Below, in pieces: positions 23,585-45,499 of a stretch of DNA of 64,000 nucleotides. A program made the translations under genes and the position numbers. The stretch comes from Escherichia coli. GTDB lineage: Bacteria > Pseudomonadota > Gammaproteobacteria > Enterobacterales > Enterobacteriaceae. The notes under the pieces are model-generated. The model made no database searches, was not told the DNA's origin, and saw nothing but the letters and a program-made list of their open reading frames with translations. The stretch lies in NCBI RefSeq assembly GCF_003334305.1, contig NZ_QOWS01000001.1; one strand, written 5' to 3'. Numbering within the stretch: position 1 is the first letter of the stretch; each line of letters opens with the position of its first letter.

Positions 23585-24478
23585 ATGACGAATTTAAAAG
23601 CAGTTATACCGGTAGCAGGTCTTGGGATGCATATGTTGCCTGCCACTAAGGCGATTCCCAAAGAGATGCTACCGATCGTCGACAAGCCAATGATTCAGTA
23701 CATTGTTGACGAGATTGTGGCTGCAGGGATCAAAGAAATCCTCCTGGTAACTCACGCGTCCAAGAACGCGGTCGAAAACCACTTCGACACCTCTTATGAA
23801 TTAGAATCTCTCCTTGAACAGCGCGTGAAGCGTCAACTGCTGGCGGAAGTGCAGTCGATCTGTCCACCGGGAGTGACCATTATGAACGTGCGTCAGGGCG
23901 AACCTTTAGGTTTGGGCCACTCCATTTTGTGTGCGCGACCTGCCATTGGTGACAACCCATTTGTCGTGGTACTGCCAGACGTAGTGATCGACGACGCCAG
24001 CGCCGACCCGCTGCGCTACAACCTAGCTGCCATGATTGCGCGCTTCAATGAAACGGGACGCAGCCAGGTGCTGGCAAAACGTATGCCGGGTGATCTCTCT
24101 GAATACTCCGTCATTCAGACCAAAGAACCGCTGGATCGCGAAGGTAAAGTCAGCCGCATTGTTGAATTCATCGAAAAACCGGATCAGCCACAAACGCTGG
24201 ACTCAGACATCATGGCCGTTGGTCGCTATGTGCTTTCTGCCGATATTTGGCCGGAACTTGAACGCACTCAACCTGGTGCATGGGGGCGTATTCAACTGAC
24301 TGATGCCATTGCTGAACTGGCGAAAAAACAGTCCGTTGATGCAATGCTGATGACTGGTGAAAGCTACGACTGCGGTAAAAAAATGGGCTATATGCAGGCG
24401 TTTGTGAAGTATGGCTTACGCAACCTGAAAGAAGGGGCGAAGTTCCGTAAAGGGATTGAGAAGCTGTTAAGCGAATAA
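23585..24478 (+). CDS. galF: UTP-glucose-1-phosphate uridylyltransferase paralog
   Basis: 297 aa; protein recognised; conventional upstream boundary of the O-antigen locus. Confidence 0.95.
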
Positions 24479-35143: not shown

Positions 35144-35428
35144 ATGAGTCGTTTATCCCACCAGTCGCAACATAACGCCGTCGTCGTGTGCAAAGAGCTG
35201 TCAAGCCCGAACGCGCGCTGCTTCTCTGGCGGCGAATACGATGTCTCTTCTTATCTTTCCTCGTATCGTAAATGCTCCTTTCTGATGGTTGCTGGCATCG
35301 GTAAATCACTTGATTCGTTTTTTTTGATGGCGGTGAGAGCATGTGTTTTGCCCCGCGTAAATGAGAAGGTCCTGATGGTTACTCTGGCGGCAAATGTGGA
35401 AATTGTGGGGCGTTTCGTGGCCTGGTGA
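35144..35428 (+). CDS. Hypothetical small protein (orphan ORF in the wzz-manC junction)
   Basis: 94-aa ORF from ATG 35144 (GAGG just upstream), in frame with a longer ORF from 35120; followed by a strong hairpin terminator; no recognisable domain. Confidence 0.3.
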   Translation: MSRLSHQSQHNAVVVCKELSSPNARCFSGGEYDVSSYLSSYRKCSFLMVAGIGKSLDSFFLMAVRACVLPRVNEKVLMVTLAANVEIVGRFVAW

Positions 35429-35490: not shown

Positions 35491-35582
35491 AGGATGCCCG
35501 TTCCGTAAGGATGGTTTTTGAGACCGCTGAGTGAAGGGGCTGCCGACAGTCTGAAGCGAAAGAGGGTGGCGTTTAGCCTGGA

Positions 35583-35624
35583 GCACTACGCATTTTGGTT
35601 GCGATAGCCAATGGCGGTAGCGTA
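35583..35624 (+). promoter_or_regulatory. Degenerate JUMPstart-like element with ops-like site
   Basis: GGCGGTAGCGT at 35613-35623 with partial JUMPstart similarity upstream, about 80 bp before manC. Confidence 0.6.
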
Positions 35625-35701
35625 CCTGAAAAAGGCCATTCAACCCGTTGGTCGATTGATTGATAGTAAAATAAAACAATTATTTATTTAAGGATTTCAT
35701 T

Positions 35702-37117
35702 ATGTTACTTCCTGTAATTATGGCTGGTGGTACCGGCAGTCGTCTCTGGCCGATGTCACGCGAGCTTTATCCGAAACAGTTCCTCCGCCTGTTCGGGCAG
35801 AACTCCATGCTGCAGGAAACCATCACCCGACTCTCGGGTCTTGAAATCCATGAACCGATGGTCATCTGTAACGAAGAGCATCGCTTCCTGGTGGCTGAAC
35901 AGCTGCGCCAGCTAAATAAGCTGTCGAATAACATTATACTTGAGCCAGTCGGGCGCAACACCGCGCCGGCCATCGCCCTGGCGGCCCTTCAGGCCACCCG
36001 CTACGGTGACGACCCGCTGATGCTGGTTCTCGCCGCCGACCACATCATCAATAACCAGTCGGCCTTCCACGACGCTATCCGGGTCGCCGAGCAGTATGCT
36101 GATGAAGGTCATCTGGTCACCTTCGGTATCGTGCCGAATGCCCCGGAAACTGGCTACGGTTACATTCAGCGCGGCGTGGCGCTCACCGATAGTGCCCATT
36201 CCGCGTACCAGGTGGCCCGCTTTGTGGAGAAGCCGGATCGCGAGCGCGCCGAGGCTTACCTCGCCTCCGGGGAGTACTACTGGAACAGCGGCATGTTTAT
36301 GTTCCGCGCCAAGAAATACCTCATCGAGCTGGCCAAATACCGTCCGGATATCCTGGAAGCCTGCCAGGCTGCGGTGAATGCCGCCGATAATGGCAGCGAT
36401 TTCATCAATATCCCACATGATATTTTCTGCGAGTGCCCGGATGAGTCCGTGGACTACGCCGTTATGGAGAAAACCGCTGATGCGGTGGTGGTCGGTCTCG
36501 ATGCTGACTGGAGCGACGTTGGCTCCTGGTCCGCACTATGGGAGGTCAGCCCGAAAGACGAGCAGGGCAACGTCCTTAGTGGCGACGCGTGGGTACACAA
36601 CAGCGAAAACTGCTACATCAACAGCGACGAGAAGCTAGTGGCGGCCATTGGCGTAGAGAATCTGGTGATTGTCAGCACTAAGGACGCCGTGCTGGTGATG
36701 AATCGCGAGCGTTCCCAGGACGTGAAGAAGGCGGTCGAGTTCCTCAAGCAGAACCAGCGCAGCGAGTACAAGCGCCACCGTGAGATTTACCGCCCCTGGG
36801 GCCGTTGCGACGTAGTGGTCCAGACCCCGCGCTTCAACGTCAACCGCATCACGGTGAAACCAGGCGGTGCCTTCTCGATGCAGATGCACCACCATCGCGC
36901 CGAGCATTGGGTTATTCTCGCCGGCACCGGTCAGGTGACGGTCAACGGTAAGCAGTTCCTGCTGTCCGAGAACCAGTCCACCTTTATTCCGATTGGCGCC
37001 GAGCACTGCCTGGAAAACCCTGGCTGTATTCCGCTGGAAGTGCTGGAGATCCAGTCGGGGGCGTACCTTGGCGAGGACGACATTATTCGTATTAAAGACC
37101 AGTATGGTCGTTGCTAA
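35702..37117 (+). CDS. manC: Mannose-1-phosphate guanylyltransferase (O-antigen copy)
   Basis: 471 aa; paralogous to cpsB but clearly divergent at DNA level and more GC-rich; [11 protein letters not shown] motif. Confidence 0.93.
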
Positions 37118-37140
37118 TTATTTTCGGGACAAGATGCAGA

Positions 37141-38517
37141 ATGACACAGTTAACTTGTTTTAAGGCTTATGACATCCGTGGTGAACTGGGTGAGGAACTG
37201 AACGAGGACATCGCCTACCGTATCGGTCGCGCCTACGGCGAATTTCTGAAACCCGGGAAGATAGTGGTGGGGGGCGATGTGCGCCTCACAAGCGAGTCGC
37301 TGAAGCTGGCGCTGGCCCGCGGGTTAATGGACGCCGGTACCGACGTGCTGGACATCGGCCTGAGCGGTACCGAAGAGATTTACTTTGCCACCTTCCACCT
37401 TGGGGTAGATGGTGGCATCGAGGTGACCGCGAGCCACAATCCTATGAACTACAACGGCATGAAGCTGGTGCGCGAGAATGCGAAGCCCATCAGCGGCGAC
37501 ACCGGCCTGCGGGATATCCAGCGCCTGGCGGAGGAAAACCAGTTCCCGCCAGTGGACCCGGCGCGTCGCGGGACCCTGAGCAAGATATCGGTACTGAAGG
37601 AGTATGTTGACCATCTGATGAGCTACGTGGACTTCTCGAACTTCACCCGTCCACTGAAGTTGGTGGTGAACTCCGGAAACGGGGCTGCGGGGCACGTGAT
37701 TGATGAGGTGGAGAAACGCTTCGCGGCGGCTGGGGTGCCGGTAACCTTTATCAAGGTGCATCACCAGCCGGATGGCCATTTCCCTAACGGTATCCCGAAT
37801 CCGCTGCTGCCGGAGTGCCGCCAGGATACCGCCGACGCGGTGCGCGAGCATCAGGCAGACATGGGGATTGCCTTTGACGGCGACTTCGATCGCTGCTTCC
37901 TGTTCGATGACGAAGCTTCGTTTATCGAGGGGTATTACATTGTCGGCCTGCTGGCTGAGGCGTTCCTGCAGAAGCAGCCGGGAGCGAAAATCATTCACGA
38001 CCCGCGCTTGACGTGGAACACGGTAGACATCGTGACCCGCAACGGCGGCCAGCCGGTGATGTCGAAGACGGGGCATGCGTTCATCAAGGAGCGGATGCGT
38101 CAGGAAGACGCTATCTACGGCGGGGAGATGAGTGCGCACCATTACTTCCGCGATTTCGCCTACTGCGATAGCGGGATGATCCCGTGGCTGCTGGTGGCGG
38201 AGCTGCTGTGTCTGAAGAACAGCTCGCTGAAATCGCTGGTGGCGGACCGCCAGAGGGCGTTCCCTGCGTCGGGAGAGATCAACCGCAAGCTAAGGAATGC
38301 GGCTGAGGCGATCGCCCGCATCCGGGCGCAGTATGAGCCGGCGGCTGCACACATCGACACAACGGACGGGATCAGTATTGAATACCCTGAATGGCGCTTT
38401 AACCTGCGCACGTCTAACACCGAGCCGGTGGTGCGTCTGAACGTTGAGTCCAGAGCTGATGTGGCGCTTATGAATGAAAAAACGACCGAGCTGTTACACC
38501 TGTTAAGCGGGGAATAA
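37141..38517 (+). CDS. manB: Phosphomannomutase (O-antigen copy)
   Basis: ATG at 37141 ([14 protein letters not shown]) inside ORF 37111..38517, 458 aa; paralogous to cpsG. Confidence 0.93.
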
Positions 38518-38518
38518 G

Positions 38519-39313
38519 GTGAGAGATTTACTAACGACGATTTATCGTTATCGGGGATTTATCTGGAGCAGTGTTAAACGTGATTTTCAGGCGCGCTATC
38601 AAACTAGTATGCTGGGCGCACTATGGCTCGTTTTACAACCGCTCTCTATGATTCTGGTCTATACCCTGGTTTTTTCCGAGGTGATGAAGGCAAGAATGCC
38701 CGATAATACCGGGTCGTTTGCCTATAGTATTTATCTCTGTTCCGGGGTACTGACCTGGGGATTATTTACTGAGATGCTGGATAAAGGTCAGAGCGTATTT
38801 ATTAACAATGCTAATCTGATCAAGAAACTCAGTTTTCCGAAAATCTGTCTGCCGATCATCGTGACGTTATCGGCGGTGCTAAATTTCGCGATTATTTTCA
38901 GTCTGTTTCTAATTTTTATCATTGTCACCGGTAACTTCCCCGGCTGGCTCTTTCTCTCGGTGATACCGGTCCTGCTTTTGCAAATCCTGTTTGCCGGTGG
39001 GCTGGGGATGATCCTTGGTGTCATGAACGTCTTTTTCAGGGATGTGGGGCAACTGGTTGGCGTTGCGCTGCAATTCTGGTTTTGGTTCACACCCATTGTT
39101 TATGTACTGAATTCATTACCTGCATGGGCAAAAAATCTGATGATGTATAACCCGATGACTCGGATCATGCAATCTTATCAGTCCATCTTCGCCTATCATC
39201 TGGCCCCCAACTGGTATTCGCTATGGCCAGTATTGGCTCTCGCCATTATTTTCTGTGTCATCGGTTTCAGGATGTTCCGCAAGCATGCGGCGGATATGGT
39301 GGATGAATTATAA
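38519..39313 (+). CDS. wzm: ABC-2 type O-antigen exporter permease
   Basis: 264 aa, 6 TM segments; GTG start at 38519 with GGGGAATAAGG upstream; directly precedes wzt. Confidence 0.85.
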   Translation: MRDLLTTIYRYRGFIWSSVKRDFQARYQTSMLGALWLVLQPLSMILVYTLVFSEVMKARMPDNTGSFAYSIYLCSGVLTWGLFTEMLDKGQSVFINNANLIKKLSFPKICLPIIVTLSAVLNFAIIFSLFLIFIIVTGNFPGWLFLSVIPVLLLQILFAGGLGMILGVMNVFFRDVGQLVGVALQFWFWFTPIVYVLNSLPAWAKNLMMYNPMTRIMQSYQSIFAYHLAPNWYSLWPVLALAIIFCVIGFRMFRKHAADMVDEL

Positions 39314-40527
39314 TGAGTTATATCAGAGTAAATAATGTCGGTAAGGCGTATCGCCAGTATCACTCAAAGACCGGGAGACTGATCGAATGGTTATCCCCTC
39401 TGAATACCAAACGCCATAACTTGAAATGGATCCTCCGCGAGATTAATTTCGAAGTCGCTCCGGGCGAGGCTGTCGGTATTATCGGTATCAACGGTGCAGG
39501 CAAGAGTACCCTGCTTAAACTCATAACCGGGACGTCCAGGCCGACGACTGGAGAAATTGAAATCTCCGGACGTGTCGCTGCATTACTCGAATTGGGGATG
39601 GGGTTTCATTCTGATTTCACTGGCCGGCAGAATGTTTATATGTCTGGGCAACTGTTGGGGTTATCGTCAGAGAAAATAACTGAACTGATGCCGCAAATTG
39701 AAGAGTTTGCTGAGATTGGGGACTATATCGATCAGCCTGTGCGCGTCTACTCCAGTGGGATGCAAGTTCGATTAGCTTTTAGTGTAGCGACGGCTATCCG
39801 TCCTGATGTGCTAATTATCGATGAGGCATTATCTGTTGGGGATGCATATTTCCAGCATAAAAGCTTTGAGCGTATTCGAAAATTTCGTCAGGAAGGGACC
39901 ACGCTGTTGCTGGTATCCCATGATAAACAAGCGATCCAAAGCATTTGCGACCGGGCCATTTTATTGAATAAAGGCCAAATTGAAATGGAAGGTGAACCTG
40001 AAGCAGTGATGGATTATTACAATGCGCTTCTGGCCGATAAACAAAATCAGTCCATTAAACAAGTTGAGCATAATGGTAAAACGCAAACTGTTTCAGGCAC
40101 TGGTGAGGTGACTATCTCTGAGGTTCATCTTCTCGATGAACAGGGCAATGTGACTGAATTTGTTTCGGTAGGGCATCGTGTCAGCTTGCAGGTCAACGTT
40201 GAGGTCAAGGACGATATTCCTGAGCTTGTTGTCGGATATATGATTAAGGATCGACTTGGACAGCCGATTTTCGGGACCAATACGTACCATCTCAATCAGA
40301 CACTCACCTCCCTGAAAAAAGGAGAAAAGCGTTCGTTCTTATTTTCTTTCGATGCGAGATTGGGGGTTGGCTCCTATTCTGTCGCTGTCGCGTTGCATAC
40401 TTCCAGTACGCACCTCGGCAAAAACTATGAATGGCGCGATCTGGCCGTGGTATTCAACGTCGTTAACACGGAACAACAAGAGTTTGTCGGCGTGTCCTGG
40501 TTGCCGCCTGAACTGGAGATTTCTTAA
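39313..40527 (+). CDS. wzt: O-antigen ABC exporter ATP-binding protein with C-terminal extension
   Basis: 404 aa; Walker A GINGAGKST, signature YSSGMQVRLAF, Walker B LIIDEA; about 150 aa beyond the nucleotide-binding domain. Confidence 0.88.
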   Translation: MSYIRVNNVGKAYRQYHSKTGRLIEWLSPLNTKRHNLKWILREINFEVAPGEAVGIIGINGAGKSTLLKLITGTSRPTTGEIEISGRVAALLELGMGFHSDFTGRQNVYMSGQLLGLSSEKITELMPQIEEFAEIGDYIDQPVRVYSSGMQVRLAFSVATAIRPDVLIIDEALSVGDAYFQHKSFERIRKFRQEGTTLLLVSHDKQAIQSICDRAILLNKGQIEMEGEPEAVMDYYNALLADKQNQSIKQVEHNGKTQTVSGTGEVTISEVHLLDEQGNVTEFVSVGHRVSLQVNVEVKDDIPELVVGYMIKDRLGQPIFGTNTYHLNQTLTSLKKGEKRSFLFSFDARLGVGSYSVAVALHTSSTHLGKNYEWRDLAVVFNVVNTEQQEFVGVSWLPPELEIS

Positions 40528-41804
40528 TGGGTTCGTCGTTTTATCGTTCATTTGAAGAACGACACAGAGGTTCGGTTGAAGAAATCAAGCGCCGCTTGAG
40601 TTTTTATTTACCTTTTCTTGCAGGTCTGAAGGACATTTATCCTGATGGCGTGATTGCGGATATTGGTTGCGGACGTGGCGAATGGTTGGAGATCCTGACT
40701 GAAAATGGCATTGCGAACATCGGCGTCGATCTCGATGATGGCATGCTGGCGCGCGCCAGGGAGGCCGGACTGAATGTGCAGAAAATGGATTGTCTGCAGT
40801 TTCTGCAAAGTCAGGCGGATCAGAGCCTGATAGCGTTGACCGGTTTTCATATTGCTGAGCATTTGCCTTTTGAGGTCCTGCAGCAGCTCGTCATGCATAC
40901 CCTACGGGTGCTGAAACCAGGTGGTTTGCTGATCCTCGAAACGCCGAACCCGGAGAATGTAAACGTCGGCACCTGTTCATTTTATATGGATCCAACGCAT
41001 AATCATCCTCTGCCACCGCCACTGCTTGAGTTTTTACCTATTCATTATGGTTTTAACAGAGCAATTACCGTTCGTCTGCAGGAAAAAGAGGTTCTTCAAT
41101 CTCCGGATGCAGCCGTTAATTTGGTCGATGTACTCAAAGGGGTGAGCCCCGACTACAGCATCATTGCTCAGAAAGCAGCGCCAACAGATATTCTTGAACG
41201 CTTTGACACCCTGTTTACCCAGCAGTATGGTCTGACGCTGGATGCTCTGAGCAACCGTTACGATGCGATTTTGCGCCAACAGTTTTCGTCCGTTGTCTCA
41301 CGGCTGGAGACGTTGAACCAAACCTATATGCAACAGATAAGCCAAATGTCAGAGACTATTCAGACTTTGCAAGGTGAGGTTGACGATCTGAGTCATGTCA
41401 TCGATCAGAACCATCAGCTTCATCAGCAAATGGCGGATTTACATAACAGTCGTTCATGGCGTATTACTCAACCACTACGCTGGTTGTCTTTGCAACGTCA
41501 ATTATTACGTCAGGAAGGGGCTAAAGTGCGAGCCCGTAGGGCTGCGAAAAAAATATTGCGCAAAGGGATGGCGCTCTCGCTGGTCTTTTTCCATCGTTAC
41601 CCTAAGTCTAAGGTTTATCTGTTTAAGGTTCTGAGAAAAACTGGCTGCTATACATTGCTACAACGTTTGTTCCAACGCGTAATGCTGGTGCAATCTGACA
41701 CGATGATGATGCAGTCCAGAAGATATGATGTGGGTACTGAAGAAATGACAAGTCGCGCGATGAGTATTTATAACGAATTAAAAAATAAAAATACGGAGAA
41801 ATAA
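40527..41804 (+). CDS. wbdD: Chain-terminating SAM-dependent methyltransferase (methyltransferase-only WbdD type)
   Basis: 425 aa; methyltransferase motif DIGCGRGEWL; C-terminal coiled-coil-like region; no kinase motifs seen. Confidence 0.7.
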   Translation: MGSSFYRSFEERHRGSVEEIKRRLSFYLPFLAGLKDIYPDGVIADIGCGRGEWLEILTENGIANIGVDLDDGMLARAREAGLNVQKMDCLQFLQSQADQSLIALTGFHIAEHLPFEVLQQLVMHTLRVLKPGGLLILETPNPENVNVGTCSFYMDPTHNHPLPPPLLEFLPIHYGFNRAITVRLQEKEVLQSPDAAVNLVDVLKGVSPDYSIIAQKAAPTDILERFDTLFTQQYGLTLDALSNRYDAILRQQFSSVVSRLETLNQTYMQQISQMSETIQTLQGEVDDLSHVIDQNHQLHQQMADLHNSRSWRITQPLRWLSLQRQLLRQEGAKVRARRAAKKILRKGMALSLVFFHRYPKSKVYLFKVLRKTGCYTLLQRLFQRVMLVQSDTMMMQSRRYDVGTEEMTSRAMSIYNELKNKNTEK

Positions 41805-41806
41805 CG

Positions 41807-44800
41807 ATGCGTATTGTCATAGATTTACAAGGCGCACAGACGGAAAGCCGCTTTCGTGGCATCGGTCGTTATAGTATCGCAATCGCCAGAGGCATAATCA
41901 GAAATAACAGCCGGCATGAGATTTTCATCGCGCTATCCGCCATGCTGGATGAGTCGATTGCGGATATTAAGGCGCAATTTGCCGATCTCCTGCCGGCAGA
42001 AAATATAGTCGTATGGCATGCCGTAGGCCCTGTTCGTGCGATGGACCAAGGTAATGAATGGCGTCGGGAGAGCGCAGAACTGATTCGGGAAGCGTTTCTT
42101 GAATCATTGTGTCCAGATGTCGTTTTCATTACGAGCTTGTTTGAAGGTCATGTCGACGATGCGGCTACATCGGTACACAAATTTAGTCGTCAGTATAAAG
42201 TAGCCGTACTGCACCACGATCTTATCCCCCTCGTGCAGGCGGAAACCTATCTGCAGGACGATGTATACAAACCCTACTACTTACAGAAAGTTGAGTGGTT
42301 AAAAAACGCTGACCTTTTGTTGACTAACTCTGCTTATACCGCACAGGAAGCGATCGAGCATCTGCATTTACAGGGCGATCATGTGCAGAATATTGCAGCC
42401 GCAGTCGATTCTCAGTTTTGTATGGCGGAGGTGACAGCGAGCGAAAAAGAGACCGTCCTTGGCCATTACGGTATTCAGCGCGAGTTCATGTTGTATGCGC
42501 CCGGAGGATTTGACTCAAGGAAAAACTTTAAACGGTTGATTGAGGCCTATGCCGGGCTCAGTGATGCCTTACGTCGCAGTCATCAACTGGTTATCGTCAG
42601 TAAGCTTTCCATCGGTGATCGTCAGTATCTGGAATCCCTTGCGTCAGGTAATGGTTTACAGCAAGGCGAACTGGTACTCACTGGTTATGTGCCGGAAGAT
42701 GAGCTGATCCAGCTCTATCGCCTATGTAAGCTGTTCATCTTTGCTTCACTACATGAAGGTTTTGGGTTGCCGGTTCTGGAAGCAATGTCGTGCGGTGCGC
42801 CGGTGATTGGCTCAAATGTCACCAGTATTCCTGAAGTCATCGGTAATCCTGAGGCATTATTCGACCCGTATTCTGTCTCTTCCATGAGGGATAAGATCGC
42901 GCAATGTTTGACTGATGATACCTTCCTCGCGCGTCTGAAAGAAATGGCGCAGCAGCAAGCGCGTAATTTCTCTTGGGATAAAGCTGCGGTGACTGCTCTG
43001 GAGGCTTTCGAAAAGATCGCGGTAGAAGACACCGGTACTGCGCAGGTTTTGCCTGAAGCTTTGATTCAGAAGATCCTTGCTATCACACAAGGGCAGCCAG
43101 ATGACCGCGATCTGCGCTTGTGCGCAACGGCCATTGATTACAATCTGAAAACGGCAGAACTTTATCAAATCGACGATAAATCGCTGAACTGGCGTGTGGA
43201 AGGCCCATTCGATAGCTCATATAGTCTGGCGTTGGTCAACCGCGAATTTGCCCGGGCACTCTCAGCCGATGGTGTAGAGGTCTTATTGCATTCCACTGAA
43301 GGACCGGGTGATTTTGCCCCAGATGCCTCCTTTATGGCACAGTCGGAAAATAGTGATCTTCTGGCATTTTATAATCAATGTCAGACCCGCAAGAGTAACG
43401 AAAAGATAGATATTCTTAGCAGAAATATCTATCCACCGCGGGTTACCAAAATGGATGCCAAAGTAAAATTCCTTCATTGTTATGCTTGGGAAGAAACGGG
43501 CTTTCCGCAACCGTGGATCAATGAATTTAATCGGGAACTTGACGGAGTGCTGTGTACTTCGGAACATGTTCGTAAAATATTGATTGATAACGGACTGAAT
43601 GTGCCCGCATTTGTTGTTGGCAATGGCTGTGACCATTGGCTCAATATCCCAGCCGAGACGACAAAAGATGTGGATCACGGAACATTCCGTTTCCTGCACG
43701 TCTCTTCTTGTTTCCCACGCAAAGGGATACAGGCAATGCTTCAGGCTTGGGGGAAGGCGTTCACTCGTCGTGACAATGTTATCTTAATCATTAAGACTTT
43801 TAACAATCCGCACAATGAAATTGACGCATGGCTGGCTCAGGCCCAGGCTCAATTCATAGACTATCCCAAAGTTGAAGTGATCAAAGAGGATATATCAGCC
43901 ACCGAGCTTAAAGGGCTTTATGAAAGCTGTGATGTTTTGGTTGCTCCAGGTTGCGCTGAAGGCTTTGGTTTACCTATTGCTGAAGCAATGCTGAGTGGGC
44001 TACCGGCTATCGTCACCAATTGGAGCGGGCAACTTGATTTTGTTAATTCACAAAATTCATGGCTGGTTGACTATCAGTTCACTCGGGTAAAAACGCACTT
44101 TGGTCTGTTTTCCTCAGCCTGGGCCAGTGTGGATATTGACAACTTAACAGATGCATTAAAAGCGGCAGCCTCAACCGATAAATCAGTGCTGCGTGACATG
44201 GCCAATGCTGGTCGCGAGCTTCTTCTGCAGCAGTTTACCTGGAAAGCGGTGGCTGATCGTTCTTGCCAGGCGGTCAAGACTCTGCGTGCGCATATTGATA
44301 TTGCACAGCATCGGGCGCGCATTGGCTGGTTGACGACCTGGAACACGAAATGTGGGATCGCAACCTATTCCCAGCATCTGGTGGAAAGCGCACCTCATGG
44401 CGCGGATGTTGTTTTTGCTCCCCAGGTCAGCGCTGGCGATCTTGTGTGTGCAGACGAAGAGTTTGTACTTCGCAACTGGATTGTAGGTAAAGAGAGCAAC
44501 TATCTGGAAAACCTCCAGCCACACATTGATGCTCTGAAACTCGATGTCATTGTGATCCAATTCAACTATGGATTCTTTAATCATCGAGAACTGTCGGTGT
44601 TTATTCGTCGCCAGCATGACGCCGGTCGTTCAGTTGTTATGACGATGCACTCAACTGTGGATCCGCTGGAAAAAGAGCCGAGCTGGAATTTCCGTCTTGC
44701 TGAAATGAAAGAGGCGCTGGCACTTTGCGACCGGTTGTTGGTGCATTCGATTGCCGATATGAACCGCCTTAAAGATTTAGGCTTAACTGCGAATGTTGCT

Positions 44801-45448
44801 TTATTCCCGCACGGTGTTATCAACTACTCCGCAGCGAGCGTCACACGTCAACAGCAGTCTTTACCGCTAATTGCGAGCTATGGCTTCTGCTTACCGCATA
44901 AGGGCCTGATGGAACTAGTAGAATCCGTCCATAGACTCAAGCAAGCCGGTAAACCGGTTCGTTTACGACTGGTGAACGCAGAGTATCCTGTTGGGGAGTC
45001 ACGCGATCTGGTGGCAGAGCTTAAAGCTGCTGCTCAGCGGTTAGGTGTTACCGATCTGATTGAGATGCATAATGATTTCCTACCTGATGCGGAGAGTCTG
45101 CGGTTGCTTTCAGAAGCCGATCTTCTGATTTTTGCTTATCAGAATACTGGGGAGTCTGCTAGCGGGGCGGTACGTTATGGTATGGCGACTCAAAAACCTG
45201 TTGCGGTAACGCCCCTGGCGATATTTGATGATTTGGACGATGCCGTCTTTAAATTTGATGGATGCAGCGTCGATGATATCAGTCAGGGGATTGACCGGAT
45301 CCTGAATTCCATCCGTGAACAGAACTCTTGGGCAACCAGGACTCAACAACGTGCCGATGCATGGCGGGAACAACATGATTATCAAGCTGTTTCACGCCGT
45401 CTGGTTAATATGTGTCAAGGCTTAGCTAAAGCTAAATATTTTAAATAA
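41807..45448 (+). CDS. wbdA: Multidomain polymerising mannosyltransferase (GT4 modules)
   Basis: 1213 aa; GT4 signatures EGFGLPVLEAMSCGAPV (about residue 320) and EGFGLPIAEAMLSGLPAI (about residue 725), plus a third C-terminal GT-like region. Confidence 0.75.
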   Translation: MRIVIDLQGAQTESRFRGIGRYSIAIARGIIRNNSRHEIFIALSAMLDESIADIKAQFADLLPAENIVVWHAVGPVRAMDQGNEWRRESAELIREAFLESLCPDVVFITSLFEGHVDDAATSVHKFSRQYKVAVLHHDLIPLVQAETYLQDDVYKPYYLQKVEWLKNADLLLTNSAYTAQEAIEHLHLQGDHVQNIAAAVDSQFCMAEVTASEKETVLGHYGIQREFMLYAPGGFDSRKNFKRLIEAYAGLSDALRRSHQLVIVSKLSIGDRQYLESLASGNGLQQGELVLTGYVPEDELIQLYRLCKLFIFASLHEGFGLPVLEAMSCGAPVIGSNVTSIPEVIGNPEALFDPYSVSSMRDKIAQCLTDDTFLARLKEMAQQQARNFSWDKAAVTALEAFEKIAVEDTGTAQVLPEALIQKILAITQGQPDDRDLRLCATAIDYNLKTAELYQIDDKSLNWRVEGPFDSSYSLALVNREFARALSADGVEVLLHSTEGPGDFAPDASFMAQSENSDLLAFYNQCQTRKSNEKIDILSRNIYPPRVTKMDAKVKFLHCYAWEETGFPQPWINEFNRELDGVLCTSEHVRKILIDNGLNVPAFVVGNGCDHWLNIPAETTKDVDHGTFRFLHVSSCFPRKGIQAMLQAWGKAFTRRDNVILIIKTFNNPHNEIDAWLAQAQAQFIDYPKVEVIKEDISATELKGLYESCDVLVAPGCAEGFGLPIAEAMLSGLPAIVTNWSGQLDFVNSQNSWLVDYQFTRVKTHFGLFSSAWASVDIDNLTDALKAAASTDKSVLRDMANAGRELLLQQFTWKAVADRSCQAVKTLRAHIDIAQHRARIGWLTTWNTKCGIATYSQHLVESAPHGADVVFAPQVSAGDLVCADEEFVLRNWIVGKESNYLENLQPHIDALKLDVIVIQFNYGFFNHRELSVFIRRQHDAGRSVVMTMHSTVDPLEKEPSWNFRLAEMKEALALCDRLLVHSIADMNRLKDLGLTANVALFPHGVINYSAASVTRQQQSLPLIASYGFCLPHKGLMELVESVHRLKQAGKPVRLRLVNAEYPVGESRDLVAELKAAAQRLGVTDLIEMHNDFLPDAESLRLLSEADLLIFAYQNTGESASGAVRYGMATQKPVAVTPLAIFDDLDDAVFKFDGCSVDDISQGIDRILNSIREQNSWATRTQQRADAWREQHDYQAVSRRLVNMCQGLAKAKYFK

Positions 45449-45499
45449 AAATATCTCTCTTGTATTTTTTGCCTTTGAATACAAGAGGGGTTAGATAAT

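Follow-up and report, generated by a model that had tools for sequence, protein, structure and literature searches.

The window analyzed, a stretch of 64,000 nucleotides of Escherichia coli (assembly GCF_003334305.1, contig NZ_QOWS01000001.1), contains a complete O8 cluster, manC-manB-wzm-wzt-wbdD-wbdA-wbdB-wbdC, which adjoins the his operon and has the same order as the annotated locus of E. coli IAI1 (Table 1). In RefSeq, wbdA of IAI1 is flanked by manC, rfbK, O8-family wzm/wzt, a SAM methyltransferase, a GT4 protein, wbdC and hisIE. We take IAI1 to be an O8 strain, from the “O8 family” names of its wzm and wzt genes in RefSeq as well as from background knowledge of the strain. The product of wbdD gave NCBIfam methyltransferase matches at aa 34-148. 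The role of WbdD as chain terminator (PMC11231755) and those of WbdB and WbdC in building the primer-adaptor (PMC7685785) have been previously described.

The open reading frame of wbdA runs uninterrupted from the ATG at 41807 to the TAA at 45446-45448, with a GGAGA ribosome-binding site 8 nt upstream and the stop codon of wbdD ending 2 nt before the ATG. One nucleotide and one amino acid (G625V) distinguish it from the IAI1 sequence (WP_001223552.1), and its 100% megablast matches were annotated as “glycosyltransferase” in O8 genomes, IAI1 included. The 3642-nt gene was at least 99% identical in 344 of the 5426 complete E. coli genomes, and 339 complete genomes carried it at a coverage of at least 80%. 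More than 100 homologues, most of them of about 1205-1230 aa, were aligned across 98-100% of the query with 46-87% identity; they came from Klebsiella, Serratia, Pantoea, Bordetella, Marinobacter, Desulfosporosinus and Thermanaeromonas, representing several phyla. Residue invariance and column conservation were scored over 40 full-length homologues within this identity range (46-87%).

Table 1. Features of the O8 cluster and of the modules of WbdA (positions in the window).
Feature	Position	Strand	Basis
manC-manB (rfbK), GDP-mannose supply	35702..38517	+	RefSeq annotation
wzm-wzt, O8-family O-antigen ABC exporter	38519..40527	+	RefSeq names, NCBIfam
wbdD(O8), SAM-dependent methyltransferase, chain terminator	40527..41804	+	RefSeq annotation of the IAI1 locus
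wbdA(O8), polymerising mannosyltransferase, 1213 aa, whole ORF including stop	41807..45448	+	ORF list, translation
M1, aa 1-400, canonical GT4-type GT-B unit, putative α-(1->2)-mannosyltransferase	41807..43006	+	Pfam, O9 orthology
M1 EX7E motif, E317...E325	42755..42781	+	Both Glu invariant in 40 homologues
Linker 1, aa 401-458	43007..43180	+	Column conservation 0.32-0.39, with gaps
M2, aa 459-820, GT4-type GT-B unit, candidate retaining α-(1->3)-mannosyltransferase	43181..44266	+	Pfam, NCBIfam
M2 EX7E motif, E718...E726	43958..43984	+	Translation, conservation in 40 homologues
Linker 2, aa 821-838, short	44267..44320	+	Conservation 0.32
M3, aa 839-1213, divergent GT4-like GT-B unit, candidate inverting β-(1->2)-mannosyltransferase	44321..45445	+	
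M3 P-H-K-G, aa 1030-1033, counterpart of the R238-K239 / R638-K639 diphosphate-binding pair	44894..44905	+	hhalign register
M3 EX7E variant, E1116-S-A-S-G-A-V-R-Y1124, Tyr at the second Glu position	45152..45178	+	hhalign, conservation
wbdB + wbdC, single-module GT4 α1,3-mannosyltransferases, primer-adaptor	45512..47782	+	RefSeq annotation, NCBIfam

Three glycosyltransferase modules, M1, M2 and M3, were found in this one chain of about 1200 aa; the linkers between them are helical and show little conservation. The Pfam family Glycos_transf_1 matched at aa 228-383, 624-750 and 1019-1181, each match being preceded by one to Glyco_transf_4 in the N-terminal half of the module, weak for M1 (E 5.9e-3) and M3 (E 1.8e-3). 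Three α/β Rossmann pairs were present in the AF2 model of the full-length protein (pLDDT 90.5, pTM 0.83), and conservation fell to minima at aa 401-460 and 821-840. In the model, linker 1 formed helices at 416-424 and 433-453, where the pLDDT dipped to 74-76, and linker 2 consisted of the end of helix 812-828 and a helix at 830-833. BLASTP between modules was nearly uninformative, with M1 and M2 aligning at the EX7E stretch only and the M1-M3 and M2-M3 comparisons being non-significant or off register; profile-profile alignment was therefore used, and hhalign placed the donor domains in register with probabilities of 98.5% (M1-M2), 91% (M1-M3) and 92% (M2-M3). A sequence search of the PDB with WbdA yielded mostly M1 matches, a few weak ones reaching M2 and none for M3, and Foldseek with the whole model of about 1200 residues retrieved GT4 structures, the matching module not being indicated. 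All three modules thus have a GT-B fold, defined boundaries and conserved donor-site residues.

A preliminary description of this DNA had proposed three modules from two GT4 signatures about 400 residues apart and a GT-like C-terminal region of about 450 residues. The signatures, EGFGLPVLEAMSCGAPV in M1 (aa 317-333, nt 42755-42805) and EGFGLPIAEAMLSGLPAI in M2 (aa 718-735, nt 43958-44011), do sit 401 residues apart. The Pfam matches bore out the GT character of the C-terminal region but not its length, since the third unit has about 375 aa and the remainder is the tail of M2 plus a linker. Structure prediction and domain parsing, as suggested there, recovered three GT-B units and not the two folds plus a non-catalytic domain that would have spoken against the proposal, and Pfam, conservation, the AF2 model and hhalign agree with one another and with published work on three modules. 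The boundaries, in turn, had been considered unreadable from sequence, and could be read when sequence and structure were combined.

M1 has the profile match (Glycos_transf_1, E 3e-28), the EX7E motif and the R/K diphosphate-binding pair of CAZy family GT4, with R238-K239-N240, E317 and E325 invariant in the 40 homologues. It shares 38% identity over 400 aa (E 4e-95) with the N-terminal domain of WbdA(O9), of whose α1,2 module it is the orthologue; by this orthology it probably forms the α1,2 bond. Mutations in the N-domain of WbdA(O9) (R55C) alter the number of α1,2 mannoses (PMC7685785; PMC10629545).

M2 likewise has all three GT4 features. Its Pfam matches were Glyco_trans_1_4 at 628-755 (E 7e-12), Glycos_transf_1 at 624-750 (E 3e-11) and Glyco_transf_4 at 478-609 (E 9.4e-5), NCBIfam GT4 families matched it down to E 1e-14, and R638-K639-G640, E718 and E726 are invariant in the 40 homologues. 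This canonical retaining signature, with R-K and EX7E intact, suggests that M2 forms the α1,3 bond.

M3 is more divergent. It consists of two Rossmann-like α/β domains with an inter-domain cleft and matched solved GT-B enzymes over its full length, and its Pfam matches were weak: Glycos_transf_1 at 1019-1181 (E 3.9e-4), Glyco_trans_1_4 at 1030-1166 (E 2.5e-4) and Glyco_transf_4 at 901-1004 (E 1.8e-3). The single NCBIfam match (E 3e-5) was far below the cutoff of that family. The EX7E motif with both Glu residues is absent, E1116 being followed after seven residues by Y1124, a Tyr that is nearly invariant in the 40 homologues; hhalign placed Y1124 in register with E325 and E726, with a 2-residue insertion before E1116 and T1114 opposite the first Glu. 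Invariant residues across the 40 homologues, namely C849-G-I-A, Y854, S855, H948, T950, H980, D984, K1032, G1033, E1116, S1117, R1123 and D1142 (H1031 being nearly so), indicate that M3 is under selection. The family of M3 comprises 731 cluster representatives at E <= 1e-30 with various architectures, some apparently stand-alone, and in other bacteria it is usually fused directly behind an M2-type module. When AFDB50 was searched with M3, all matches were multi-module glycosyltransferases with generic names, which gave no functional clue to stereochemistry. As the module farthest from the GT4 consensus (H-K, E-X7-Y), M3 appears to be the best candidate for an inverting site and may form the β1,2 bond.

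The assignment of α1,3 to M2 and β1,2 to M3 is moderately favored. Fold similarity was dropped as a criterion of retention or inversion for M3: this module is closest to retaining enzymes, yet one of the modules must invert. M3 also retains the GT4-like His-Ser-Thr (H948), and its motif helix still begins with a Glu, so that the similarity of fold gives no support for its being the inverting one. In M2 the EX7E helix is followed by an unusual, conserved β-hairpin insertion (aa 751-775) close to the donor site, and it could be M2 that departs from the other modules. The opposite arrangement of the same three modules, with M2 as an inverting β-(1->2)-mannosyltransferase and M3 as a retaining α-(1->3)-mannosyltransferase, is less likely. 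Against it, M2 scores as an ordinary GT4 in Pfam and NCBIfam (E 1e-11 to 1e-14) and keeps both EX7E Glu residues and the R-K pair, whereas the best E-values of M3 are 2.5e-4 (Pfam) and 3e-5 (NCBIfam), and in it neither the second Glu nor the Arg is retained; to our knowledge, moreover, CAZy family GT4 is uniformly retaining.

It is very improbable that M3 is a catalytically dead GT-B scaffold, used for example for docking to WbdD or the membrane, with M1 and M2 making all three linkages. Its weak Pfam matches and the Tyr in place of the second EX7E Glu would fit such a scaffold, and WbdA(O9a) is recruited by WbdD (PMC11231755), so that some interaction surface must exist. However, its donor-position residues (K1032, G1033, E1116, S1117, R1123, D1142, C849-G-I-A and H948) are invariant, its family is large and partly stand-alone, two retaining GT4 modules would lack the inverting site that a β linkage from GDP-α-Man requires, and published accounts give a GT module to each of the three linkages (PMC7685785; PMC11231755). 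The frameshift or misassembly joining two or three adjacent glycosyltransferase genes that the preliminary description had kept in view is practically excluded by the identical wbdA in the 339 complete genomes, the same coordinates in RefSeq, the full-length homologues from distant bacteria and an AF2 model that is confident through both linkers. Nothing was found in favor of such an artefact.

The reading frame is thus wbdA, encoding the O8 (= Klebsiella pneumoniae O5) polymannose polymerase with three tandem GT-B units, with a probability of about 0.93. WbdA would act in the cytoplasm, drawing on GDP-mannose, as the polymerase of the ABC-transporter-dependent pathway of the polymannose O-antigen, in which WbdC and WbdB would first make a mannose adaptor on GlcNAc-PP-undecaprenol. 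The three modules would then take turns at the non-reducing end, adding one mannose each, to give the trisaccharide repeat ->3)-β-Man-(1->2)-α-Man-(1->2)-α-Man-(1->, and the chain end would be methylated by WbdD before export via Wzm/Wzt. The three-module design is already known and of textbook standing: WbdA(O8) polymerises a repeat of α1,3-, α1,2- and β1,2-linked mannose from GDP-Man (PMC7685785; PMC11231755), and three GT modules, one for each of these linkages, have been described for it and for Klebsiella O5 (Greenfield et al. 2012, J Biol Chem 287:38135, as cited in PMC7685785; PMC11231755). Searches of the literature for more recent work assigning structures or linkages to the modules of O8 gave nothing beyond PMC11231755. 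The additions made here are the module boundaries, the orthology of M1 to the O9 α1,2 module, and the divergence of M3 and its fusion after M2-type modules.

The protein, cluster, three-module organization and predicted product do not differ substantively from those of WbdA of E. coli O8 and K. pneumoniae O5, the Klebsiella orthologues being 87% identical to the query over the full length. WbdA(O9/O9a; Klebsiella O3), of 840 aa, shares the pathway, the donor and the position between wbdD and wbdB. It has two GT4 modules, which each contribute two or three residues in a single type of linkage, and makes no β linkage (PMC11231755). It lacks an equivalent of M3, and M2 of O8 is not an orthologue of its C-terminal α1,3 module, the EX7E stretch alone aligning (E 3e-5). 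Identity to the solved retaining GT4 GT-B enzymes PimA, sucrose-phosphate synthase and BshA was 11-18%, and where these carry R-x-x-x-x-x-K/RK and E-X7-E, M3 has H-K-G and E-X7-Y. A GDP-α-mannose GT-B pair giving α and β products within one pathway is known from xanthan synthesis, namely GumH (GT4, retaining) and GumI (GT94, inverting) (PMC13104830). GumI has neither EX7E nor an obvious catalytic base (PMC13104830); GumH and GumI differ from WbdA in being separate polypeptides that act once per repeat on hetero-oligosaccharide acceptors. The S-layer poly-rhamnan of Geobacillus stearothermophilus, made by WsaE/WsaF, also has an α1,2, α1,3, β1,2 repeat, multidomain GTs, an ABC-transporter-type pathway and a methyl cap, but the polymer consists of rhamnose, a protein of its own makes the β1,2 linkage and the methyltransferase is fused to a two-GT protein (PMC2943079).

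As a tentative reading, given slightly less than even odds, M3 may represent a distinct and widespread GT-B subfamily, a GT4-like scaffold turned into an inverting GDP-mannose β-(1->2)-mannosyltransferase, within an obligate M2-M3 “α-then-β” two-module cassette that would be extended by additional modules, M1 being one example. The marks of this subfamily would be H-K-G, T-G-E-S-x-S-x-A-x-R-Y and an N-terminal loop W-N-T-K-C-G-I-A-x-Y-S. This reading may already have been stated in Greenfield et al. 2012.

O-antigen assembly that depends on an ABC transporter has WbdA(O8) among its model polymerases, and the antigen itself (Klebsiella O5 / E. coli O8) is a target for vaccines and antibodies. 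Finding the three-module enzyme again adds no new biology, the design being already in reviews. Chemical synthesis of β-mannosides is difficult, and the inverting mannosyltransferases of the GT-B type have been little characterised. The residual question is one of enzymology, namely which of the GT4-like modules inverts to yield the β-mannoside, and how, and the module boundaries and invariant residues given here allow the direct design of an experiment on the inverting module.

The wbdA(O8) gene is one unbroken open reading frame in the translated window. A GGAGA ribosome-binding site was located 8 nt 5' of the start codon, which lies 2 nt past the stop codon of the preceding gene, the spacing expected of genes that are translationally coupled in an operon. 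The RefSeq annotation gave the same coordinates for this gene, and it was found at a coverage of at least 80% in 339 complete E. coli genomes. In a database search, more than 100 cluster representatives matched 98-100% of the WbdA(O8) length with 46-87% identity. Most of the full-length homologues had ~1205-1230 aa, some with extra domains reaching up to ~1700 aa, and their sources were Klebsiella (87%), Serratia (65%), Rouxiella, Pantoea (~55%), Gallibacterium, Bordetella, Marinobacter, Desulfosporosinus and Thermanaeromonas. These three lines of evidence exclude a fusion caused by frameshift or misassembly and bear out the single polypeptide of the preliminary description. An identity of at least 99% to the 3642-nt gene was detected in 344 of 5426 complete E. 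coli genomes; the copies were annotated throughout as plain "glycosyltransferase" and were nearly always chromosomal (2 of 348 matches were plasmid-borne). Only one nucleotide differs from the copy of the O8 strain IAI1 (G625V), at the start of the M2 donor domain and within a stretch of lowered model pLDDT.

Positions of features in the window and in WbdA(O8); domain matches are from Pfam
Feature	Window (nt)	Residues	Details
galF	23585-24478		flanks Wzx/Wzy-type cluster
Wzx/Wzy-type cluster	24786-30498		usual galF-gnd site
gnd	30617-32023		flanks Wzx/Wzy-type cluster
wzzB to manC	34565-35428		short ORFs only, 93-127 aa
manC, manB	35500-38500		GC 55-60%
wzm, wzt, wbdD, wbdA	38500-45500		GC 46-49%
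wbdA(O8)	41807-45448 (+)	1-1213	ATG 41807, TAA 45446-45448
M1 N-half		18-202	E 5.9e-3
M1 C-domain		228-383	E 3e-28
M2 N-half		478-609	E 9.4e-5
M2 C-domain		624-755	E 3e-11 / 7e-12
M3 N-half		901-1004	E 1.8e-3
M3 C-domain		1019-1181	E 3.9e-4 / 2.5e-4
Codon 625	43679-43681	625	Gly here, Val in IAI1
wbdA-wbdB hairpin	45453-45491		perfect, 15 bp

The gene order around wbdA(O8) is that of IAI1, annotated in RefSeq as ugd, wzzB, manC, rfbK (manB), "O8 family" wzm and wzt, a class I SAM methyltransferase, wbdA(O8), a GT4 protein, wbdC and hisIE; the transporter, methyltransferase and GT4 neighbours were also confirmed by NCBIfam. The locus is an O8 ABC-transporter-dependent polymannose cluster, and the gene is therefore wbdA(O8). 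The GC step within this cluster agrees with a mosaic, horizontally acquired origin. The interval between wzzB and manC is probably a leftover at the acquired cluster's junction; in IAI1, its counterpart has annotations for a hypothetical protein of 94 aa and a truncated pseudogene. The hairpin in the wbdA-wbdB intergenic region lies directly 3' of the wbdA stop and has no T-run after it. Its folding energy is -18.5 kcal/mol (z -3.9 relative to shuffled sequences, none of 200 of which was as stable), and within the operon it may act in mRNA stabilisation or processing. O9-type clusters, where wbdA and wbdD have been replaced, share the wbdB-wbdC pair (~93-95% identity), and an IS1 insertion was observed in the wbdB/wbdC region of at least one E. 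coli genome (strain 1-62).

Additionally, the strain carries a Wzx/Wzy-type O-antigen cluster between galF and gnd, unlike IAI1, which has a different cluster at this site. Annotation in 100%-identical genomes comprises O46/O134-family wzx and wzy, two GT2 genes, an ATP-grasp amidoligase and a β-1,6-GlcNAc transferase. Its GC is ~0.38, and at least 80% of the stretch was found in only 17 of 5426 genomes.

The Pfam search, which covered residues 1-1200, detected three C-terminal "group 1" glycosyltransferase domains, each preceded by a Glyco_transf_4 N-terminal half. The two GT4 signatures noticed previously were exact (EGFGLPVLEAMSCGAPV, residues 317-333; EGFGLPIAEAMLSGLPAI, residues 718-735; 401 residues apart). 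The alignment of full-length proteins (n = 40, mean column identity 60%) showed conservation troughs, with gaps, at residues ~401-460 and ~821-840. The AlphaFold2 model obtained from it (mean pLDDT 90.5, pTM 0.83) consisted of three consecutive pairs of Rossmann-like α/β domains, with connecting helices at 416-424 and 433-453 (M1 to M2) and at 812-828 and 830-833 (M2 to M3). Based on the Pfam matches, the troughs and this model, the predicted limits of the modules were set at 1-400 (M1), 459-820 (M2) and 839-1213 (M3); the boundaries, previously held to be unreadable from sequence, could instead be read by adding structure prediction.

M3 modelled alone (alignment of 21 sequences) reached a pLDDT of 92.7 and a pTM of 0.89, and its fold neighbours included HepE, PimB', PglH and GlgM. 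From these neighbours and the confident model, M3 is predicted to be a complete glycosyltransferase fold rather than a non-catalytic appendage of another kind, in line with the GT-like character and Pfam matches of this region. The module is under strong selection: invariant residues in the alignments included the first-strand loop W841...C849-G-I-A-x-Y854-S855, H948-x-T950, H980, D984, N986, K989, K1032-G1033, T1114-x-E1116-S1117-x-S1119-x-A1121-x-R1123 and D1142. M3 alone, searched against the full library, matched 2713 cluster representatives with E <= 1e-3, of which 731 had E <= 1e-30. When the best 150 matches were scored with profiles of the three modules, the architecture was M1-M2-M3 in 57, M2-M3 in 43, M3 only in 24 (several of them probably fragments) and M1-M3 in 16. 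In these 150, M3 mostly stood directly after an M2-type module, separated from it by a linker of ~18 residues; proteins with this arrangement were 700-2200 aa long and spread over many phyla. The AFDB50 matches, generically named throughout, had the same arrangement, including Aquifex aeolicus O67173, with a few stand-alone proteins of ~350-385 aa. This distribution suggests that M2-M3 is a conserved two-module cassette and M1 an add-on.

Sequence comparison indicates that the three modules are ancient paralogues rather than recent duplicates. BLASTP aligned M1 with M2 only in the EX7E stretch and gave no reliable alignment of M3 with the other modules. Profile-profile alignment placed the three donor-binding domains in register (probabilities 98.5%, 91% and 92%), with R238-K239-N240 (M1), R638-K639-G640 (M2) and H1031-K1032-G1033 (M3) equivalent and Y1124 of M3 opposite the second EX7E glutamate (E325 in M1, E726 in M2). 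Since M3 has two more residues than M1 and M2 in the loop that precedes the motif helix, the M3 motif is E1116-X7-Y1124.

The comparison with WbdA(O9), the two-module relative, used the O9-type cluster of a different E. coli genome. M1 and the N-terminal domain of WbdA(O9) were 38% identical across all 400 residues (E 4e-95), and no orthologues of M2 and M3 were found in this one cluster. According to reviews, changes in WbdA(O9) such as R55C alter how many residues are added by the "α1,2-Man-specific GT module" (PMC7685785, PMC10629545). Residue 55 lies within that N-terminal domain and, given the orthology, M1 is most probably an α-(1->2)-mannosyltransferase. Formation of a β-mannoside from GDP-α-mannose requires an inverting site, and family GT4 is retaining. 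Besides α1,2, the linkages of the O8 repeat are one α1,3 and one β1,2 (PMC7685785). M2 scored as a normal GT4 with every profile (Pfam, NCBIfam) and retains both glutamates and the Arg-Lys pair, and M3 is the outlier among the three modules. On these grounds, we favour, with a probability of roughly 0.6, M2 making the α1,3 and M3 the β1,2 bond. Confidence in this assignment is limited: the enzymes closest to M3 in fold are retaining, and M2 for its part has an unusual, conserved insertion, a β-hairpin at residues ~751-775.

Two reviews describing the WbdA(O8) modules, PMC7685785 and PMC11231755, each refer to Greenfield et al. 2012 (J Biol Chem 287:38135). The three-module WbdA(O8) is a correct rediscovery of this already known model enzyme; the observation in the preliminary description is confirmed and its interpretation supported.
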